NCBI GenBank assembly: GCA_964385825.1
Contig: CAYLPX010000001.1
Location: 84,493 to 148,492, forward strand
DNA: 64,000 nt
Reading direction: 5' to 3'
Origin: an uncultured Candidatus Saccharibacteria bacterium
Lineage (GTDB): Bacteria > Patescibacteriota > Minisyncoccia > Phycocordibacterales > JAKFXT01
Numbering within the stretch: the first letter of the stretch is position 1; each line of letters starts with the position of its first letter. Both the position numbers and the translations under genes were made by a program. The notes beneath the pieces are model-generated. The model searched no databases. It was not told the origin of the DNA and worked only from the letters and a program-made list of their open reading frames with translations. Below are positions 1,074 through 55,195 of this stretch, piece after piece.

Positions 1074-1148
1074 GGCCCTATCGTCTAACGGCTAGGACGG
1101 CACCCTCTCACGGTGCAAATCGGAGTTCGATTCTCCGTAGGGTCGCCC
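1074..1148 (+). tRNA. tRNA-Glu (anticodon CUC)
   Basis: Cloverleaf built by hand. Acceptor GGCCCTA pairs with TAGGGTC. D stem is GTCT/GGAC. Anticodon stem GCACC/GGTGC carries loop CTCTCAC. T arm is CGGAG-TTCGATT-CTCCG. Discriminator is G. Confidence 0.85.
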
Positions 1149-1153
1149 CAAAC

Positions 1154-1184
1154 AAAAACCACTCTTTCTTTGAGTGGTTTTTGT
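1154..1184 (+). terminator. intrinsic terminator downstream of tRNA-Glu
   Basis: Hairpin aaaaaccactc-tttcttt-gagtggttttt with a trailing T run. Confidence 0.6.
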
Positions 1185-1269
1185 TTGGTTGGGTCTAGGA
1201 GAATCGAAAGACGGAGCGCGACGGCGCGAGTCGGGGTCGCGTAAAAACTAGCAAAGTTTTATGCGTGAC

Positions 1270-1289
1270 CGATTCTCCGTAGGGTCGCC
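1270..1289 (+). repeat. 20-nt direct copy of the tRNA-Glu 3' end (T-arm 3' half plus acceptor 3' strand), about 120 bp downstream of the tRNA
   Basis: cgattctccgtagggtcgcc is identical to 1128-1147. The downstream copy ends in gcca. Confidence 0.7.
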
Positions 1290-1359
1290 AATATGGGAAA
1301 ATAAAGTAGTTTGACTTATAAAAAACTAACTTTCACTTAATATCGATAGAAAATGATAA

Positions 1360-1404: not shown

Positions 1405-1623
1405 TTACCGCTCCCCGAGGAAAAAGGTACGGCGCCGCTTCTTGCGGTCAAGCAAGAGGATGCATGTCCCCGATATTCCCGTGATGAATTCCGCAAAGAG
1501 GAACCAGAAATCTGTTTCCGTCTCTGGATACCCTACGAAAAATGGGCTGGAGTCCATGAGCTGGGCATGGACCAGAAAGAAGGCTGCGACGGTGATACCG
1601 ATCGCGATTATGCGGCTCCGCAT
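1405..1623 (-). CDS. hypothetical small (72 aa) membrane protein encoded in a GC-rich patch
   Basis: ATG at 1623 is preceded by AAGGAGAG. There are two hydrophobic segments and a basic C-tail. Local GC is clearly above flanking DNA, and a hairpin lies downstream. Confidence 0.45.
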   Translation of the reverse strand: MRSRIIAIGITVAAFFLVHAQLMDSSPFFVGYPETETDFWFLFAEFITGISGTCILLLDRKKRRRTFFLGER

Positions 1624-1814: not shown

Positions 1815-3608
1815 ATGGCGTCTGAAAAAACTACAACTACCAAAGGAGATTTCAAAAAAGGATTAAAGGCTATCATATTTCGTCACCTCAAACCATATAG
1901 ACGCGAAATAAATTTACTTTTAATACTCGGATTGATTTCCGCAGTACTTAATGGTTTTGTTCCTTTTGTAACTGGCCGCTTTTTTGATGCACTCATACAT
2001 ATGTCCCAGGGGGTAGCAGAGGTTAAATTACTTACTCCCTGGATTCTCTTTTTTATACTATGGTGTGTAATACAGTTTTTGGTAAATATTGTTGACTGGT
2101 ATATACAAAAGGTTAATAGACACATTGATAATAAAAGCCATTTTGGAATTCAGGCTGCAGGGCTCGCTCATCTTTTACGTTTACCCATGAGTTTTCACAA
2201 AAAAGAAAGAAGCAACGGATTAATTCAAAAAATAAGTGATGTTAGTTGGCGAGTCGCAAGTATGGGAAATACCGTACTTAGCCTTGTACCAAGTTTTATT
2301 AGTGTGTTTGTCGGCATACTTCTTTCTTTTACGCTTAATATAGTATTGGCTTCAGTGCTCTTGGTAGGTATGGTAGTTTATGCAATAATTCTTTTCCGTT
2401 TGGTTTTGCCGACCGCCGAATTAAATAAAAAAGGACATGAAGTTTGGAATAAGGAGTGGGATGCCGCTTCAGCTTCGGTCCAACAAGTAGAAAATGTTAA
2501 GCAGGCAACGGCGGAAGATTATGAAGAGAAAAAAATTACAGAAGGACTGGCTAAGAAGACGTATGGTATTTGGATTTCTCTCGCAAATCGTTGGAGTACT
2601 ATTGGAGGACTACAAAGACTCGTTGTTTTTGTAGTGCAGGTAACAATTTTTGTTTTGGCTATTGGGTATATTCAAAAAGGGATACTGACCGTAGGAGAAC
2701 TTATTACTTTCAATGGCTATGCGCTCATGATTTTGGGACCAATAGTTTCTTTGGGATACAACTGGCAGAATATTCAAAATAGTATTATTGCTGCAGCATT
2801 AGCCGAAGATATTTTTGGAGCAGAAACAGAAGTTTATAACAAAAATTCTAAAGAGAAAAACAAAATAGTTGAGGGAGTGGTAGAGTTTAGAGATGTAACA
2901 TTTCGTTATGCAAAAGATCAGCCAATAGTGCTGGATAAGGTAAGTTTTACAGTGGCAAAAGGAGAAGTAGTGGCGCTTGTGGGTAAAACAGGGGTGGGCA
3001 AGAGTAGTCTCATTGGATTATTAGGAGGATACTTTTTTCCAACTGAAGGCGAGGTGCTTATAGACGGCGTATCAACGAGAGAATTAAACCTAATTGATCT
3101 TCGCAGTAGTATGGCTACCGTACCGCAAGAAGTAGCGCTCTTTAATGATTCTATTAAAAATAATATAAAATACGGTTCGTTCTCTGTGTCGGATAAGACA
3201 TTGCTTCACGCAGCCAAAGAAGCTCATGTAGATGAGTTTGTGGAAAAGTTTCCTGAGAAATACGAACAAGAAGTGGGGGATAGGGGGGTTAAACTATCTG
3301 TTGGACAAAAGCAGCGCGTGGCTATCGCGAGAGCAATGCTACGTGACCCGAAGATTCTTATACTTGATGAGCCAACAAGCGCACTTGATATTGAAACAGA
3401 ACATTTTATTACAGCCTCGCTTGAAAAGCTAATGAAGGGACGTACGACGTTTATTGTGGCTCATCGTTTAAGTACAGTGCGTCGTGCTGATAAGATTTTG
3501 GTAATTGAAGAGGGAAAAATAGTTGAGGAGGGGAATCACGAAACTCTTATTAAAAAGCGTGGTGGAGTGTACAAAAAATTACACGAATTACATATTGGGC
3601 TCGCATAA
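1815..3608 (+). CDS. ABC transporter, fused permease/ATP-binding protein (MsbA/exporter type)
   Basis: N-terminal 6-TM domain. Walker A GKTGVGKSS, signature LSVGQKQRVAIARA, Walker B ILILDEPTSALD. Confidence 0.9.
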   Translation: MASEKTTTTKGDFKKGLKAIIFRHLKPYRREINLLLILGLISAVLNGFVPFVTGRFFDALIHMSQGVAEVKLLTPWILFFILWCVIQFLVNIVDWYIQKVNRHIDNKSHFGIQAAGLAHLLRLPMSFHKKERSNGLIQKISDVSWRVASMGNTVLSLVPSFISVFVGILLSFTLNIVLASVLLVGMVVYAIILFRLVLPTAELNKKGHEVWNKEWDAASASVQQVENVKQATAEDYEEKKITEGLAKKTYGIWISLANRWSTIGGLQRLVVFVVQVTIFVLAIGYIQKGILTVGELITFNGYALMILGPIVSLGYNWQNIQNSIIAAALAEDIFGAETEVYNKNSKEKNKIVEGVVEFRDVTFRYAKDQPIVLDKVSFTVAKGEVVALVGKTGVGKSSLIGLLGGYFFPTEGEVLIDGVSTRELNLIDLRSSMATVPQEVALFNDSIKNNIKYGSFSVSDKTLLHAAKEAHVDEFVEKFPEKYEQEVGDRGVKLSVGQKQRVAIARAMLRDPKILILDEPTSALDIETEHFITASLEKLMKGRTTFIVAHRLSTVRRADKILVIEEGKIVEEGNHETLIKKRGGVYKKLHELHIGLA

Positions 3609-3615
3609 AAAAACA

Positions 3616-3637
3616 GAGCGCGCATTGCTGCGCGCTC
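3616..3637. terminator. hairpin between convergent genes (ABC transporter and the 3642..3830 ORF)
   Basis: gagcgcgca-ttgc-tgcgcgctc. Confidence 0.45.
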
Positions 3638-3641
3638 GGGA

Positions 3642-3830
3642 CTAATCCCAGATTGGAGGCATGTTACCAGTGTCCTCTGGCAATCCCTCGGTGCCCGTAG
3701 GTGTTTCGAGGGCATCAAGGCCATTCTGATGTATGAACTTCTTTCCCGACCCATGTTCACTAGGAGGGGTATTGGCTGCAGCTGGCGAGGGACTTCCGTC
3801 TCCAACTGCTGGAAAAAAAAGTTTCTGCAT
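3642..3830 (-). CDS. hypothetical small protein (62 aa), GC-rich island gene C
   Basis: ATG at 3830 has GAGGGG 7 nt upstream. An upstream hairpin gagccgcg..cgcggctc (3852-3872) separates it from gene B. Confidence 0.35.
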   Translation of the reverse strand: MQKLFFPAVGDGSPSPAAANTPPSEHGSGKKFIHQNGLDALETPTGTEGLPEDTGNMPPIWD

Positions 3831-3884
3831 TTTCATTCCCCTCATGAAAGCGAGCCGCGGGTTGCGCGGCTCGGGTGTGCGGGG

Positions 3885-4220
3885 TCAGTCAGCCTCGGCG
3901 GGGGCTAGCCCGTAAAACTCGGCTTCGTGACGGTGTTCTACTGCTGTCAGTTTTCCACCACGCAGCCACGGCTTCAGCACCTGGAACTCAGCCTGTTTCC
4001 TGCTGAGTGCTTCTCCTGCGAGCCGTTTCATTTCGCAGGCCATGGCAGCATTGCCCATCATGCGAATCTCGGCCGAACGTGTTGTTCGCGCCGAACCGCT
4101 CATGCCGACCAGGAATTCATCCAAAAGCTGGCTCATTGCCCGGCGAGTATTGCCGTTGCATTCCGTGACGAGCTCTTTGGCTCGACTCTTCACAATTTCA
4201 TCTTGGTTCTTGCTTTTCAT
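3885..4220 (-). CDS. hypothetical protein (111 aa), GC-rich island gene B
   Basis: ATG at 4220 with GGGAGGAAG SD. Codon usage has high GC3, unlike neighbouring genes. Its own terminator follows. Confidence 0.5.
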   Translation of the reverse strand: MKSKNQDEIVKSRAKELVTECNGNTRRAMSQLLDEFLVGMSGSARTTRSAEIRMMGNAAMACEMKRLAGEALSRKQAEFQVLKPWLRGGKLTAVEHRHEAEFYGLAPAEAD

Positions 4221-4401
4221 GCCACTTCCTCCCAAGGAAAAAACGACGATTGAAAAACATACCAGTAACGCTGAAAATAATTATACTACTAACCCCCCAA
4301 ATGTCAAATACTGCTATGGGGGTAAAAATAGGAGGGAAAATAAAAGGGGCGCGGCCGGATATTCTCGGTCGCGCCCTGGGGTGTCGTTGCATGTTGCCCT
4401 T

Positions 4402-4812
4402 TCAGCGAACCAGTGAAAGCCGGTGTCGCACACTTTTTTCGGAGGGGAGCACCTGGGTGGTTGCGCCCATTTTGAAGTTCTGGTGCACCCACGTTTCGAT
4501 TTCCCACAGGAGTTCCGGCAGGGGCGTGATGGCGCCATTCTCGGAGCGAACCATGGGGAAGTGGATGCTCAGAATCCAGGACCCGTCAGGGCCGCGTACA
4601 AGTTCGCTCGCCGCCTCGTAGGCCCGCAGTTCACGTCGGAACTTTTCGGTATCCCTTCTGTTGGCGTGGCCAGGGAGAGGGATGCGGCAGCCCACACGAG
4701 CCTCCTTTTCGAAGTTGGCGGGGAAGTAGATCTCCGCTTCAGCGCCCGACTTGTGGAGAAGCCCTCGTACTTCCCGTACGAAAGCTCTCCAGACAGACAA
4801 TATGATTTGCAT
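4402..4812 (-). CDS. hypothetical protein (137 aa), GC-rich island gene A
   Basis: ATG at 4812 with GGAGG 5 nt upstream. It is followed on the minus strand by hairpin 4347-4376 plus a T-rich run. Confidence 0.5.
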   Translation of the reverse strand: MQIILSVWRAFVREVRGLLHKSGAEAEIYFPANFEKEARVGCRIPLPGHANRRDTEKFRRELRAYEAASELVRGPDGSWILSIHFPMVRSENGAITPLPELLWEIETWVHQNFKMGATTQVLPSEKSVRHRLSLVR

Positions 4813-4886
4813 ACAAGCCTCCATTAAATGGTGGGTGGGAACAGGTGTTACTGGTTAAAAATAGTACAATAGAAGGGTGTATAAGT

Positions 4887-4919
4887 AAACCCCTCCGGCG
4901 CAAAGCGCCGGAGGGGTTT
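4887..4919 (-). terminator. intrinsic terminator of yqeY (perfect 15-bp stem)
   Basis: aaacccctccggcgc-aaa-gcgccggaggggttt. Confidence 0.6.
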
Positions 4920-4934
4920 ACCAACCTTACTTTT

Positions 4935-5381
4935 TTAAAACAAGGTTTCTACCACTTCCTTAACTAGGGCGCCATCAGCAGCCCCCTTAAGTTCTTTCAT
5001 AAGTGCCCCCATGAAAATACCCATTTTAGATTTATCGGTTGCGCCAAGCTTTTCTTTGAGCTCTTTTGCTATTTTTTCTATTTCATCGCGTCCCATTTGA
5101 GCTGGAAGATACACCTCAAGAAGTTTCAGTTCAGCTTGTTCATTTTCTACCAGGTCAGTGCGCCCACCTTTAGTGAACTGCTCTATGGAGTCTTTGCGCT
5201 GCTTCACTGCGCGCTTAACCACCGCTAATTCTTCCTCGGGAGTGAGTTTGTCCTGTGGGGTGCGGCCTTTGGCCACGAGCTCATTGGTAAAAGCAGAAAG
5301 GAGTCCGCGAATAACATTTAGTTTTACCGAGTCTTTGGCACGCATAGCATCCTTCATTTCTTCACGTAGTTTCTCTTGCAT
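4935..5381 (-). CDS. yqeY: GatB/YqeY domain protein
   Basis: Full-length similarity to the YqeY family (C-terminal GatB-like helical domain). Confidence 0.8.
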   Translation of the reverse strand: MQEKLREEMKDAMRAKDSVKLNVIRGLLSAFTNELVAKGRTPQDKLTPEEELAVVKRAVKQRKDSIEQFTKGGRTDLVENEQAELKLLEVYLPAQMGRDEIEKIAKELKEKLGATDKSKMGIFMGALMKELKGAADGALVKEVVETLF

Positions 5382-6562: not shown

Positions 6563-6780
6563 ATAAAAAAAGCCGCCCTTCGCAGGACGGCTCAATGCAG
6601 GGGATCTTCCTGCTTTGATGCAACGCGTACAACATGCCCTCCCGAGCATGTTGGCATACTACAGTATTTAACAGTAAATAAAAGGAGGCAGGCTCGGGGG
6701 AGCCCACCTCAAGGGGAAGGGTAGATGAAGACCCTTACGTCAGAAGAGGAGTCAACTGACGCTCTTTAATAGTACTATAA
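6563..6780 (-). ncRNA. candidate structured RNA (about 220 nt) ending at a minus-oriented terminator
   Basis: The 530-bp gap has no ORF and is moderately GC-rich, with five or more stable hairpins. Hairpin 6571-6592 is followed by a U7 run only on the minus strand. Confidence 0.2.
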
Positions 6781-6784
6781 AATT

Positions 6785-6868
6785 AAAAAAAGAGGGCGGC
6801 CGTGTGAAGGTCGCCCAAATCCATCCTTGCGGATGGTGGAGGAGACTGGGTGTTCCAGTTAGGTAGCA
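6785..6868 (-). ncRNA. candidate small RNA (about 85 nt)
   Basis: Extended -10 TGtTATAGT lies on the minus strand (plus 6875-6883). Hairpin CCATCC-gcaa-GGATGG is followed by terminator GGGCGACC..GGCCGCCC plus a U7 run on the minus strand (plus 6785-6816). The RNA contains CUCCUCC. Confidence 0.25.
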
Positions 6869-7055
6869 CAGTCCCATAGCTAGGACTATAACATATATAG
6901 CTCGTGCAAAATTATCTCAAAATAAATAATTAAAAAAGTAAAGGCCTGTGTGTCACTAAATGGCAGAGAATTGGCTTAAAGGGAAGTCTCCCCCTAGTCT
7001 GGAGTATTTGGGGGCTAGGCTTAAATTTGATTGAATATTGCCCCCTGGGGGATAC

Positions 7056-7083
7056 TTGCAAACCGGCTAGTTTTGTGTAGAAT
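7056..7083 (+). promoter_or_regulatory. sigma70-like promoter of rplU (TTGCAA-16-TAGAAT)
   Basis: The -35 and -10 hexamers are read directly. The predicted start lies only a few nt before the rplU ATG. Confidence 0.4.
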
Positions 7084-7092
7084 ACGTGAATT

Positions 7093-7508: not shown

Positions 7509-7874
7509 CTAGCCTCTCCTGCGCAGGTGATGAGTCAGTGCCATGACACTGAAAACAAGGGTTGATATGTGGAAGGTGCAGTAGGCAATACTCCCGGCCA
7601 GCAGCCACACAACCATGTGGCTAAGAAGTTGCACTACAATGTCCGGATGCTCCATCCCCACATTCTTGATTGAAAGAATACCAATCAGGAACAATAGTGC
7701 ACAGTACACAAGGACAACCCTTTCCCCAGCCGTTTTCGCAGTTATCTCCTTTTCCGGGGCTAAATGTACAACCAGGATGGTGAGCCCCCAGAGGAGAAGC
7801 CCGAGATGGACCCCTCCTGTGGTGGCAATGATGACGAAGGTCTGGATTGACCAAGCAAATTCAAGCTCACTCAT
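7509..7874 (-). CDS. hypothetical polytopic membrane protein
   Basis: ATG at 7874 with AAGGAAGG SD. About 4 TM segments. It is translationally coupled to the upstream gene with a 1-nt gap. Confidence 0.5.
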   Translation of the reverse strand: MSELEFAWSIQTFVIIATTGGVHLGLLLWGLTILVVHLAPEKEITAKTAGERVVLVYCALLFLIGILSIKNVGMEHPDIVVQLLSHMVVWLLAGSIAYCTFHISTLVFSVMALTHHLRRRG

Positions 7875-7875
7875 C

Positions 7876-8223
7876 TCACACCTTCCTTTTTCGTACGAGG
7901 AGCAGAACAATGACAGCACTCCCGATTACGAGATATGCTCCTAAGCTGACAATGAGGCCATCTAAAAGAGCGTTCCCGATCATTTCCCCGCTCGGAGGAC
8001 CCACACCCTCATGGTGCGTGAGGCGGGTATAGGAATGAGTGAAGAAGACCCCGACGCTGAAGACGCCGGCGATGAGTAGCTGGAATTTCCCCCGCGTAAG
8101 TTTCAAAAAAGTCCTTACCTCCGACAGAATTGCGTCGATCCCGAAGGTAAAGGGCATTCCCATCACAGCAAGGGCCACAATCACTTTCCCGTGACCCGCA
8201 AGTACTTCCAAGATTTCAGGCAT
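7876..8223 (-). CDS. small membrane protein, possibly Mrp/Mnh antiporter subunit G-like (weak)
   Basis: ATG at 8223 with GAGGAG SD. Two or three TM segments. The motif YTRLTHHEGVGPPSG resembles the MnhG YxRxHAAGKxxTLG region. Confidence 0.35.
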   Translation of the reverse strand: MPEILEVLAGHGKVIVALAVMGMPFTFGIDAILSEVRTFLKLTRGKFQLLIAGVFSVGVFFTHSYTRLTHHEGVGPPSGEMIGNALLDGLIVSLGAYLVIGSAVIVLLLVRKRKV

Positions 8224-8291
8224 GGTGCCACTCCTCAAGGTTCAAAACAGATTGCATTAAAACACTAAAATACTGGTATTACAAGAAGAGA

Positions 8292-10588: not shown

Positions 10589-10891
10589 ATGTTCAATCTC
10601 GTCAATGCCAATCCCGAAAGGGATACCACGCCAGTCGTTCACGTAGAGCGGCTGGCGGACATCATTCACAGCATGCTGGGGGCGAGGATTGTATATCGTC
10701 CTTGGGAAGTGGCAGGGCCGTCCGAGCAGGATGAAATCCTGCTGCAGAAGGCGGAAGAAATCTGCGTGGTCACCGTGAAGGCGGGAGATCGCCGTCAGGC
10801 CTTTGAGGTCCATAACCTTGGGGCCCAATTCATCGGGCTGGTGAAGATTTTGAGTCAGCAGACCGGCTTCGAGTACCGCGCGGTATTCTGA
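10589..10891 (+). CDS. hypothetical protein (100 aa) in a GC-rich islet
   Basis: ATG is preceded by GAGGAGTAAAGAGG. Local GC is clearly above flanking DNA. A canonical terminator follows immediately. Confidence 0.45.
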   Translation: MFNLVNANPERDTTPVVHVERLADIIHSMLGARIVYRPWEVAGPSEQDEILLQKAEEICVVTVKAGDRRQAFEVHNLGAQFIGLVKILSQQTGFEYRAVF

Positions 10892-10909
10892 GACGGTACT
10901 CGGGTGGGT

Positions 10910-10942
10910 GCGCGCAGCAATGCGCGCATTTTTTTATTTTTT
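10910..10942 (+). terminator. intrinsic terminator (gcgcgca-gcaa-tgcgcgc plus T run), shared with the convergent cysS 3' end
   Basis: GC hairpin followed by TTTTTTTATTTTTT. Confidence 0.65.
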
Positions 10943-29616: not shown

Positions 29617-29874
29617 ATGACCGAGTTGGCAAGAAACCTGCCGGATAGTCCGGCGCGGTGCAATTGTGCCCCAGGGCACAGTCGTTGCGCTGGCAAGACC
29701 AGCAAGAACACGTGCCCAGGCATGGCAGTAACGCCCGTTCGGTGCGTTTCGCGGCACATGGACAAGGGGGTGGTGGGGTTTCGCCTGACAGTTTCTGTTC
29801 GGGCAGACGAGACCACCCATTTCGTCAGGTCGAACTGGCAGGGCGCAACCCCCGAAATCGAAGCTCGGGCCTGA
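29617..29874 (+). CDS. hypothetical Cys-rich small protein (85 aa) in a GC-rich islet (alternatively a structured ncRNA)
   Basis: AGGAGGG lies 6 nt before the ATG. The N-terminus reads CNCAPGHSRCAGKTSKNTCPG. A strong terminator follows. Composition is low-complexity, so protein coding is not certain. Confidence 0.35.
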   Translation: MTELARNLPDSPARCNCAPGHSRCAGKTSKNTCPGMAVTPVRCVSRHMDKGVVGFRLTVSVRADETTHFVRSNWQGATPEIEARA

Positions 29875-51895: not shown

Positions 51896-52336
51896 TTAGG
51901 CGGGTCTTCCTCCGTGGTCGCGGTTTGGTCGGCAGGGTGAACTTACGCGGTCCGGTCCCGCGTGTCCAGTTGCCGGGTTGGCGGCGATTGCCACACCGTC
52001 AGTGCGGCGCCGCGGTGGATCACGTGAATGGGACATGGGACGCTCGACTTTTCGAGTGACTGCGAAAGCTTCTACGGTCAAAAGGGAAATGTCAGGCGAT
52101 GGTAACACTGGCAGATCGAAGCCAAGGCGAAGCTCGTGCTCCTGCTTTGGCTCGGACTCAGTGAGTACCACTACTGGCAAGTTCGTCAGCTCTTTGATGA
52201 GCCTTAATTCTTGCCCGCCTTCGAGCGTTTGCGCGTCAACAATGACTTGTATGCCGCGCATATGTGCGAGAGCCTCTAGGGCTGCCAAATCAAACGGCCC
52301 AAGAAGGCCGCTACTGATGAGCAATACGCGCATCAT
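51896..52336 (-). CDS. hypothetical protein (146 aa), GC-rich. N-terminal part weakly resembles a degenerate receiver domain, followed by an Arg/Pro-rich tail.
   Basis: ATG ATG at 52336 with AAGGAGG 4 nt upstream. Promoter TTGTCA-17-TATGCT (minus strand, 52375-52403). Terminator hairpin at 51887-51905. PVVVLT-like block is present but the acidic pocket (DD) is absent. Confidence 0.4.
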   Translation of the reverse strand: MMRVLLISSGLLGPFDLAALEALAHMRGIQVIVDAQTLEGGQELRLIKELTNLPVVVLTESEPKQEHELRLGFDLPVLPSPDISLLTVEAFAVTRKVERPMSHSRDPPRRRTDGVAIAANPATGHAGPDRVSSPCRPNRDHGGRPA

Positions 52337-54986: not shown

Positions 54987-55195
54987 ACTTGCTCGTTTTG
55001 AGGCTTGATTCAGCCTCTTTGCGTGTTGCATGCACTGATTGCGACAAGGGCCGCAAGGGTGCAGAGCAGAAAGAACGACCTGTACTGTGCAGGGCAGACC
55101 ATCCCCGCCGGGCCACATTGATACGTTTGGGGGCCTGTGGAAAGCCCCCCGATTCCTGCGTGCATGCCCATCTCCTTTGTGTTGAGACTTTTTTA
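54987..55195 (-). other. 209-nt GC-rich structured element between the mnmA stop and the terminator (3' UTR or independent sRNA)
   Basis: There is no plausible ORF; the candidates overlap mnmA or are low-complexity. Hairpins include gaggct-tgattc-agcctc and gggggc-tttccaca-gccccc. Local GC is clearly above flanking DNA. Confidence 0.3.

Follow-up and report, generated by a model that had tools for sequence, protein, structure and literature searches.

A probable long-standing accessory locus of a narrow Saccharibacteria clade, with conserved expression signals and changing coding cargo

We analysed a 64-kb stretch (64,000 nucleotides; hereafter the window) of contig CAYLPX010000001.1 from an uncultured Candidatus Saccharibacteria (TM7) bacterium, in which positions 3609-4930 form a GC-rich island with three small genes, A, B and C, on the minus strand. 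The island is probably an old accessory locus of a narrow Saccharibacteria clade rather than a recent import, a judgement that covers its anatomy and evolutionary history and does not extend to the function proposed below. Gene A would constitute one unit with its own promoter and terminator, and genes B and C a second, linked by a stem-loop between the cistrons and read from a sigma-70 promoter that fits the consensus perfectly. Between lineages, the expression signals (both promoters, the 5' untranslated region (UTR) and the terminator hairpins) would stay nearly constant while the coding cargo turns over: A appears to diverge fast, B to have been displaced in situ, and C to occur in two lineages and be absent from a third. 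Homologous recombination would pass parts of the locus between strains. The high GC content at third codon positions (GC3) would be a long-lived property of the coding regions only, common to other small clade-specific genes of this genome.

The island and its counterparts in related genomes

The GC content of the island is 0.56-0.61 (300-nt windows across 3601-4800) compared to a mean of 0.432 (standard deviation 0.049, 200-nt windows) for the window, of which it is the longest and highest GC excursion. Three consecutive open reading frames (ORFs) occupy its minus strand, each with a Shine-Dalgarno (SD) site. The island is flanked upstream by yqeY, and the 3' end of gene C is faced by a convergent ATP-binding cassette (ABC) transporter gene (1815-3608). 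GC3 reaches 0.69 in gene A (z=7.5) and 0.60 in gene B (z=5.3), against 0.384 ± 0.040 with a maximum of 0.459 in the 40 window genes of at least 200 aa. Gene C has a GC3 of only 0.44 (z=1.5), its GC-richness being confined to the first and second codon positions. Synonymous codon choice in the island is shifted relative to host genes (CTG 0.33 vs 0.05; TTC 0.75 vs 0.34), and the GC excess ends at the boundaries of the coding sequences.

The locus was compared with sequences from a sister lineage, L009 (from Logan) and L011/L061 (CAZIPS010000002.1), with its independent fragment L059, and with an outgroup, L060 (JGI 3300015360). YqeY of L009 and L011 is 97% identical to that of the window, with ~78-80% nucleotide identity in the flanks; YqeY of L060 is 78% identical to the window protein. 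The order yqeY, A, terminator, promoter and B', the gene occupying the slot of B, is shared by L009, L011 and L060. Nine further public contigs carry the island, all of them 100% identical to the window. In L012, a more distant Saccharibacteria genome (YqeY 55%), rmuC and yqeY are present and the island is absent. All lineages are collinear between the CysS region and yqeY, and synteny breaks directly after the island. Its next neighbour in L009, L011 and L060 is another ABC gene, which lies on the same strand and has only 22% identity to the window transporter. The latter is opposite in orientation to the L011 gene (L011 9763-11165), of which the window has no orthologue.

Synonymous sites of the flanking genes are saturated between lineages. 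For gene A, identity amounts to 59% between the window and L009 and to 23-30% against the L060 counterpart, which is still clearly homologous (shuffle z=13.4). In rank order, the A orthologues agree with the YqeY phylogeny. For the window and L009, the nonsynonymous and synonymous differences per site (pN/pS) of gene A were 0.29/0.68, compared to a pN of 0.025-0.046 for the neighbouring yqeY and rmuC at equally saturated pS. By these values, gene A evolves at roughly ten times the rate of its neighbours, still under purifying selection. Promoters, 5' UTR and terminator hairpins are better conserved across the lineages than the coding regions.

Between L009 and L011, pN/pS was 0.16/0.55 for B' and 0.05/0.20 for C', the counterpart of gene C. 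The annotated frames gave the lowest pN/pS ratios (0.26-0.43), whereas the shifted frames gave ~1-1.5. No frame other than the annotated ones is free of stops in both genomes, and the differences are in excess at third codon positions. These substitution patterns relative to the two sister sequences show that gene A, the B' family and gene C are protein-coding and under purifying selection. Rfam had no match in the island, either at the gathering threshold or at E≤1. On the plus strand an antisense ORF of 134 aa (4423-4827) spans nearly all of gene A. It is not conserved, as its L009 counterpart has stops, and is therefore a by-product of GC-richness; a 145-aa overlapping frame in L009 is another spurious ORF opened in the same way.

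B' retains 57% identity across the deeper split between L009 and L060. Homology of the window gene B to B' was considered and rejected using BLASTP, hhalign with two- and three-sequence profiles, six-frame tblastn and a shuffle test (z at most 1.7). Since B' has been kept at 57% across the deeper split and window B has no similarity to it, an unrelated ORF appears to have taken the place of the gene in this slot in the window lineage, a displacement in situ that left the promoter and 5' UTR in front of it conserved. The only part of gene C in common with C' of L009 and L011 is the motif FI[HR]QNGLDxxxTP, and the gene is absent from L060.

The two sister sequences are ~99% identical in rmuC and A. 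Their identity is only 82-91% in yqeY (L009 1416-1862 and L011 8001-8447) and falls to ~61% in the 5' half of B' (L009 2516-2700 and L011 9095-9280). This pattern indicates a recombination mosaic with allele-sized tracts, and it fits the natural competence of Saccharibacteria reported in PMC10187176. The L011-type junction is independently confirmed by L059, which argues against chimerism for one junction.

Transcription units and their signals

Gene A (4402-4812, minus strand) encodes a protein of 136 aa with an isoelectric point (pI) of 9.6 and has the SD sequence GGAGG at 4822-4818, 5 nt ahead of the ATG. A putative promoter lies upstream (4861-4889, minus strand), with the -35 element TTTACT (4889-4884), a 17-nt spacer and the -10 element TACTAT (4866-4861). 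In the alignment of this region the block TTGTACwATTTwTAwCCAGTAA is kept in all four lineage sequences. An intrinsic terminator follows the gene (4335-4376, minus strand; GGGCGCGaCCG...CGGcCGCGCCC, then CUUUUAUUUU) with a 10-pair interrupted stem, and its position is conserved in L009, L011 and L060. That this terminator and then a promoter matching the consensus at 12 of 12 positions lie between A and B supports a transcriptional separation of the two genes. The upstream gene yqeY ends in its own canonical intrinsic terminator (4885-4921, minus strand), a perfect 17-bp stem followed by UUUACUU (ΔG -37 kcal/mol, z -6.9). Its 3' side overlaps the -35 element of the gene A promoter, and it is absent from L009 and L011.

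The invariant residues of protein A form the motif AEI[YF]FP...R[VI]GCRIPLxG...W[VI][HY]xxF...RL and cluster in AEI[YF]FP and R[VI]GCRIPLxG. An AlphaFold model built from a two-sequence alignment was of low confidence (predicted local distance difference test (pLDDT) 59). It contains an N-terminal amphipathic helix followed by elements resembling a beta-alpha-beta-beta-alpha-beta arrangement, so that a probable alpha+beta, ferredoxin-like fold is predicted.

The gene B promoter (4280-4307, minus strand) was identified by a promoter scan as TTGACA, a 16-nt spacer and TATAAT, the 12/12 match to the sigma-70 consensus. ATTTGAC and TTAGTAGTATAATT are invariant in four of four lineage sequences, while the surrounding DNA is variable; as a pattern, the promoter of this slot reads TTGAC-N-TTAGTAGTATAAT. 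A 5' UTR of ~55 nt (4221-4279, minus strand), whose start was placed from the position of the -10 element, is partly conserved (GTTTTTTCAAT...). A shared operator, CCAGTAAC, was considered near both window promoters and dropped, as it is not conserved at the B promoter in other lineages. Gene B itself (3885-4220, minus strand) encodes 111 aa (pI 9.1), with GGAGG at 4232-4228, 7 nt ahead of the ATG. The single-sequence AlphaFold model of protein B is an all-helical hairpin, also of low confidence (pLDDT 59).

Between B and C lies a GC hairpin (3852-3872, minus strand) with a 9-bp stem and a 4-nt loop (ΔG -25.6 kcal/mol). It is followed by GCUUUCAUGAGG and not by a U-tract, and the L009 equivalent likewise lacks a U-tract. 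Its outer CCCC/GGGG pairing can cover the SD site of gene C. The hairpin is probably a stabiliser or an attenuator rather than a terminator. In L060, from which gene C is absent, the hairpin after B' is followed by U9. Gene C (3642-3830, minus strand) encodes 62 aa with the SD sequence GAGGGG and has alternative in-frame starts up to 3845. It starts ~20 nt past the hairpin, which leaves no space for a promoter. Together, the hairpin without a U-tract and the gene without a promoter suggest that B and C are probably co-transcribed, and the locus is best read as two transcription units, A and B-C, rather than three. Protein C is acidic (pI 4.6), rich in proline, glycine and serine, and probably disordered. 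No signal peptide was seen by inspection in A, B or C.

Gene C ends in a canonical terminator (3607-3637, minus strand) consisting of GAGCGCGCAGCAATGCGCGCTC and then UGUUUUUUUA. The 22-nt hairpin GAGCGCGCAGCAATGCGCGCTC (window 3616-3637) is reused after B' in L009 (2870-2891) and in L060 (10362-10383), and is identical between lineages whose synonymous sites are saturated. A copy with three mismatches is found at window 10908-10929, behind the orphan gene 10589-10891.

The first-pass annotation of this DNA had described the GC-rich island, three consecutive minus-strand ORFs with SD sites, and GC hairpins at 3852-3872 and 4347-4376, all of which were recovered here, both hairpins folding at these positions. 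It had also assigned GC3-rich codon usage to the three genes, which is true of A and B and not of C, and a terminator to each, which is found for A and C and not for B. Separate expression, as proposed there, is upheld for A, with its own promoter and terminator, and not for B and C. The structure prediction that it recommended was carried out and returned the two low-confidence models described above.

Origin and possible role

A word-indexed search of 5.8 billion proteins with gene A returned its own cluster and one relative with 59% identity. An exhaustive HMMER search of 1.84 billion representatives returned its own cluster only, apart from P0004 (824 aa, E=3e-4), which was rejected as a relative because it translates a CRISPR array, whose repeat is read in three frames. 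Gene A was also searched in JGI metagenome contigs, the source of L060, and a scan of IMG/VR gave no match to it. Gene B found only itself in the word-indexed search of 5.8 billion proteins, and the search with B' yielded three alleles, all in the same slot. All hits to A and B' were Saccharibacteria contigs with the same synteny. By these searches, A, B and B' are clade-restricted orphan (ORFan) families, limited to one narrow Saccharibacteria group.

Scans of orthologues with Pfam, PADLOC and PHROGs, and of other GC-rich orphans with Pfam, gave chance-level or sub-threshold hits only. One B' allele matched MTase_II in PADLOC-DB 2.0 at 12.6 bits, which is chance level, and A, B and C matched none of the families in that database. 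The L060 orthologue of A scored 16.2 bits against the ACT domain (PF13740 and relatives; cut-off 23), and the window protein A had no hit to it. Sequence searches of the PDB with single sequences and with profiles of three to four sequences found nothing below E=0.09, and B matched no chain at E≤10. The blastn and tblastn searches of phages and plasmids gave no DNA or protein match, B having no tblastn hit in 50,697 phage records (E≤1), and the BFVD structure library gave no match. Neither direct nor inverted repeats flank 3600-4940, and no integrase lies near the island. The faint likeness of protein B to phage Gam proteins raised in the first-pass annotation thus found no hit in Pfam, PHROG, NCBIfam or PADLOC at E≤1, in the PDB or in the phage records. 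The phage or plasmid origin raised with it is disfavoured by the searches of phages, plasmids and IMG/VR, by the lack of an integrase and of flanking repeats, and by the presence of the locus at the same site in three lineages. Checking homologues and their neighbourhoods, as advised there, led only to this clade and this synteny. As to relatives, the island is present in L009, L011 and L060 and absent from L012; its genes recur with the same GC-rich composition in related genomes, as genes of a narrow clade and not as ordinary core genes, which refutes the reading of that annotation in part.

The GC3 of gene A is 0.69, 0.65 and 0.68 in the three lineages, compared to 0.37-0.46 for core genes. 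Further small GC3-rich ORFs (GC3 0.56-0.70) lie between core genes of the window, most with their own SD site and GC-hairpin terminator: 1405-1623 (minus), a pair at 7509-8238 (minus), 10589-10891 (plus), 29617-29874 (plus), 51896-52336 (minus) and 55010-55171 (minus). Pfam had no family for the five of these that were scanned (1405-1623, the 7509-8238 pair, 10589-10891 and 51896-52336), and BLASTP revealed no paralogy among the GC3-rich orphans, the 7509-8238 pair being left out. The gene at 10589-10891 (100 aa) has syntenic and equally GC3-rich orthologues in L011 (83% identity) and L060 (31%). Small clade-specific genes in the relatives, two in L011/L061 and one in L060, have a GC3 of 0.60-0.77. 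GC-biased gene conversion has been documented at recombining loci in bacteria (PMC4450053); the effect size here looks large for such a cause.

The recR-rplU spacer is another variable slot. In the window it holds two GC3-rich membrane-protein genes (7509-8238), in L061 one different 130-aa membrane-protein gene (2344-2736), and in L060 nothing (6575-6746). A 530-nt spacer without ORFs separates rmuC and rplU in the window (6563-7092) and, lying upstream of the L21 gene, might hold a leader. Its minus strand (6787-6847) matches the Rfam family Betaproteobacteria_toxic_sRNA with 37 bits (E=9e-4), below the gathering score of 50, probably by chance.

Four other explanations of the island were weighed against that of an old accessory locus. 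The one that survives best, though we consider it unlikely, is that alleles are still being imported from an unsampled GC-richer pool, an unknown mobile element or related lineages, and recombine through the conserved promoter and terminator cassettes, so that the cargo and its GC3 are continually renewed. Such import would account for cassette boundaries that are conserved around cargo that is not, for the displacement of B in situ, for the mosaic identity of L009 and L011 and for the reuse of an identical 22-nt hairpin at several loci, and the natural competence described in PMC10187176 would permit it. However, no member of such a pool was present in any collection searched, and A orthologues track the YqeY phylogeny in rank order, as vertical descent predicts.

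That A and B form a toxin-antitoxin or anti-phage defence pair is distinctly unlikely. The genes are small, adjacent and neighbours in three lineages, they turn over rapidly with one partner replaced, and they sit at a variable genome edge. Yet a terminator and a separate promoter lie between them, so that they are not an operon, both proteins are basic, and none of the toxin, antitoxin or defence models in PADLOC and Pfam matched the window proteins or any of the nine orthologues tested, nor did any in NCBIfam match the window proteins. The replacement of B while A was kept at 59% identity would also be unexpected for a matched pair.

We regard as very unlikely a recent horizontal import, in which the island would be a phage- or plasmid-derived fragment that has not yet acquired host composition. 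Neither its GC content nor its choice of synonymous codons comes near the host range, and it sits at a synteny break. In addition, an att-like duplicate of the 3' end of a tRNA-Glu gene (1128-1147 and 1270-1289) lies 2.3 kb away. Against this explanation, phages, plasmids, IMG/VR contigs and the BFVD library held no match, neither an integrase nor flanking repeats were found, and the position and the regulatory cassettes are the same in three lineages whose flanking synonymous divergence is saturated. The GC3 of A stays at 0.65-0.69 even at 23-30% amino-acid identity and the GC-richness stops at the boundaries of the coding sequences; a GC3 excess so long-lived and so confined is unlike a recent import drifting slowly toward host composition. 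Finally, the idea that the GC-rich segments are structured non-coding RNAs with the ORFs as mere by-products is highly improbable: GC-rich tracts in AT-rich genomes are often structured RNAs and spurious ORFs do open here (the 134-aa antisense and 145-aa L009 frames), but substitutions concentrate at third codon positions, the annotated frames alone are stop-free in both genomes, with low pN/pS in frame and not in shifted frames, the SD sites are correctly spaced, and Rfam is empty even at E≤1.

As for the tRNA-Glu repeat, the last 20 nt of the gene (CGATTCTCCGTAGGGTCGCC, window 1128-1147) recur exactly at 1270-1289. The 120 nt between the copies are GC-rich filler with a terminator-like hairpin, and no integrase-sized ORF adjoins them. 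The arrangement (window 1074-1290) resembles an att scar left by an element that integrated or was excised.

Several points weigh against our interpretation of an old two-unit accessory locus and its suggested role. The gene A promoter, TTTACT-17-TACTAT, is putative, read from the sequence and the alignment at a site that the consensus promoter scan did not pick out, and the co-transcription of B and C is likewise read from the sequence only. The case that window B is coding is made from its ORF, SD site, promoter and codon-position GC pattern, without a diverged comparator, all other contigs carrying B being 100% identical. Only three lineages were available, all of them metagenome assemblies, and part of the mosaic could in principle be assembly chimerism. 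A role in conflict or interaction, considered below, is argued from evolutionary behaviour only, and the lack of any Pfam, PHROG, NCBIfam or PADLOC family match for A, B and C (E≤1) also weighs against it.

Saccharibacteria are described in PMC10633639 as ultrasmall epibionts of Actinobacteria. For the function of an old accessory locus of this kind, we tentatively suggest that strongly expressed small proteins take part in a conflict or in an interaction with a partner, for instance with phages or between epibiont and host, which would best fit the combination of fixed strong expression, rapid sequence turnover and allele replacement. A toxin-antitoxin or defence-like pair is, as stated above, distinctly unlikely, and the greater part of the probability falls to some other cellular role. 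More speculatively, and in our view with little likelihood, the locus could be one case of an undescribed class in which small, strongly expressed genes occupy fixed 'expression slots', their cargo is swapped or evolves fast, and GC3 is actively held ~0.25-0.3 above that of the genome. In each slot the promoter would be close to consensus, the 5' UTR conserved and the terminator a shared GC hairpin. Selection on mRNA, strong GC-biased gene conversion at recombination hot spots and continual import from an unseen pool are candidates for what would keep GC3 high. If such a class exists, it could hold the fast-changing interface of the epibiont with its host bacterium or with phages.

Orphan genes are common in Candidate Phyla Radiation (CPR) genomes, and most of the genes that might govern the lifestyle of Saccharibacteria are unannotated. 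Candidates with clear limits are offered by the locus, namely three small proteins whose promoters and terminators are defined, and one slot with an unrelated replacement gene. By the sharp GC3 signature (at least 0.56, compared to at most 0.46), further small genes specific to the clade can be recognised in this genome. Should the signature hold more widely, fast-evolving accessory genes of CPR genomes could be found cheaply with it, and it would offer a natural test of what maintains bacterial GC3; otherwise, the island would be an ordinary cluster of hypothetical proteins. Two features merit follow-up, namely the apparent displacement in situ behind a conserved consensus promoter and the persistent GC3 split between core genes and small clade-specific genes.

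Comparison with known systems

Islands and prophage remnants mediated by an integrase differ from this locus, which has no integrase or flanking att repeats and has yqeY and an ABC transporter gene as neighbours. The sole att-like repeat near it (1128-1147 and 1270-1289) encloses 120 nt and lies 2.3 kb away. Protein B is small and helical, like phage Gam, but without sequence similarity to it in family libraries, the PDB or phage genomes. ACT and ferredoxin-like domains are suggested by a sub-threshold hit from a single orthologue (L060) and a low-confidence model, and no ligand-binding signature was identified. Type II toxin-antitoxin loci also consist of two small adjacent genes conserved as neighbours. 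In contrast, A and B are separate units (terminator 4335-4376, promoter 4280-4307), are both basic and show no family signal.

Phage 'morons' are closer in organisation, being units with their own strong promoter and terminator and a composition unlike that of their neighbours. The island, however, lies outside any prophage, at a conserved chromosomal site between housekeeping genes, and lacks phage homologues by sequence or by model structure. In integron cassettes, likewise, the promoter is fixed, the ORF behind it can be exchanged and a conserved hairpin comes next. Here, there is one slot only, no integrase-sized ORF adjoins the locus in the window, L011 or L060, and instead of an attC site there is a simple GC hairpin of 9 bp that serves as terminator.

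Lineage-specific ORFan islets at synteny breaks, or flexible genomic islets, share with the island short genes that lack homologues beyond a narrow clade, a position between core genes at a rearrangement boundary, and fast evolution. Bacterial ORFans are usually AT-richer than their genome. In contrast, the genes of this island are markedly GC3-richer than the genome, and they stay so across lineages.

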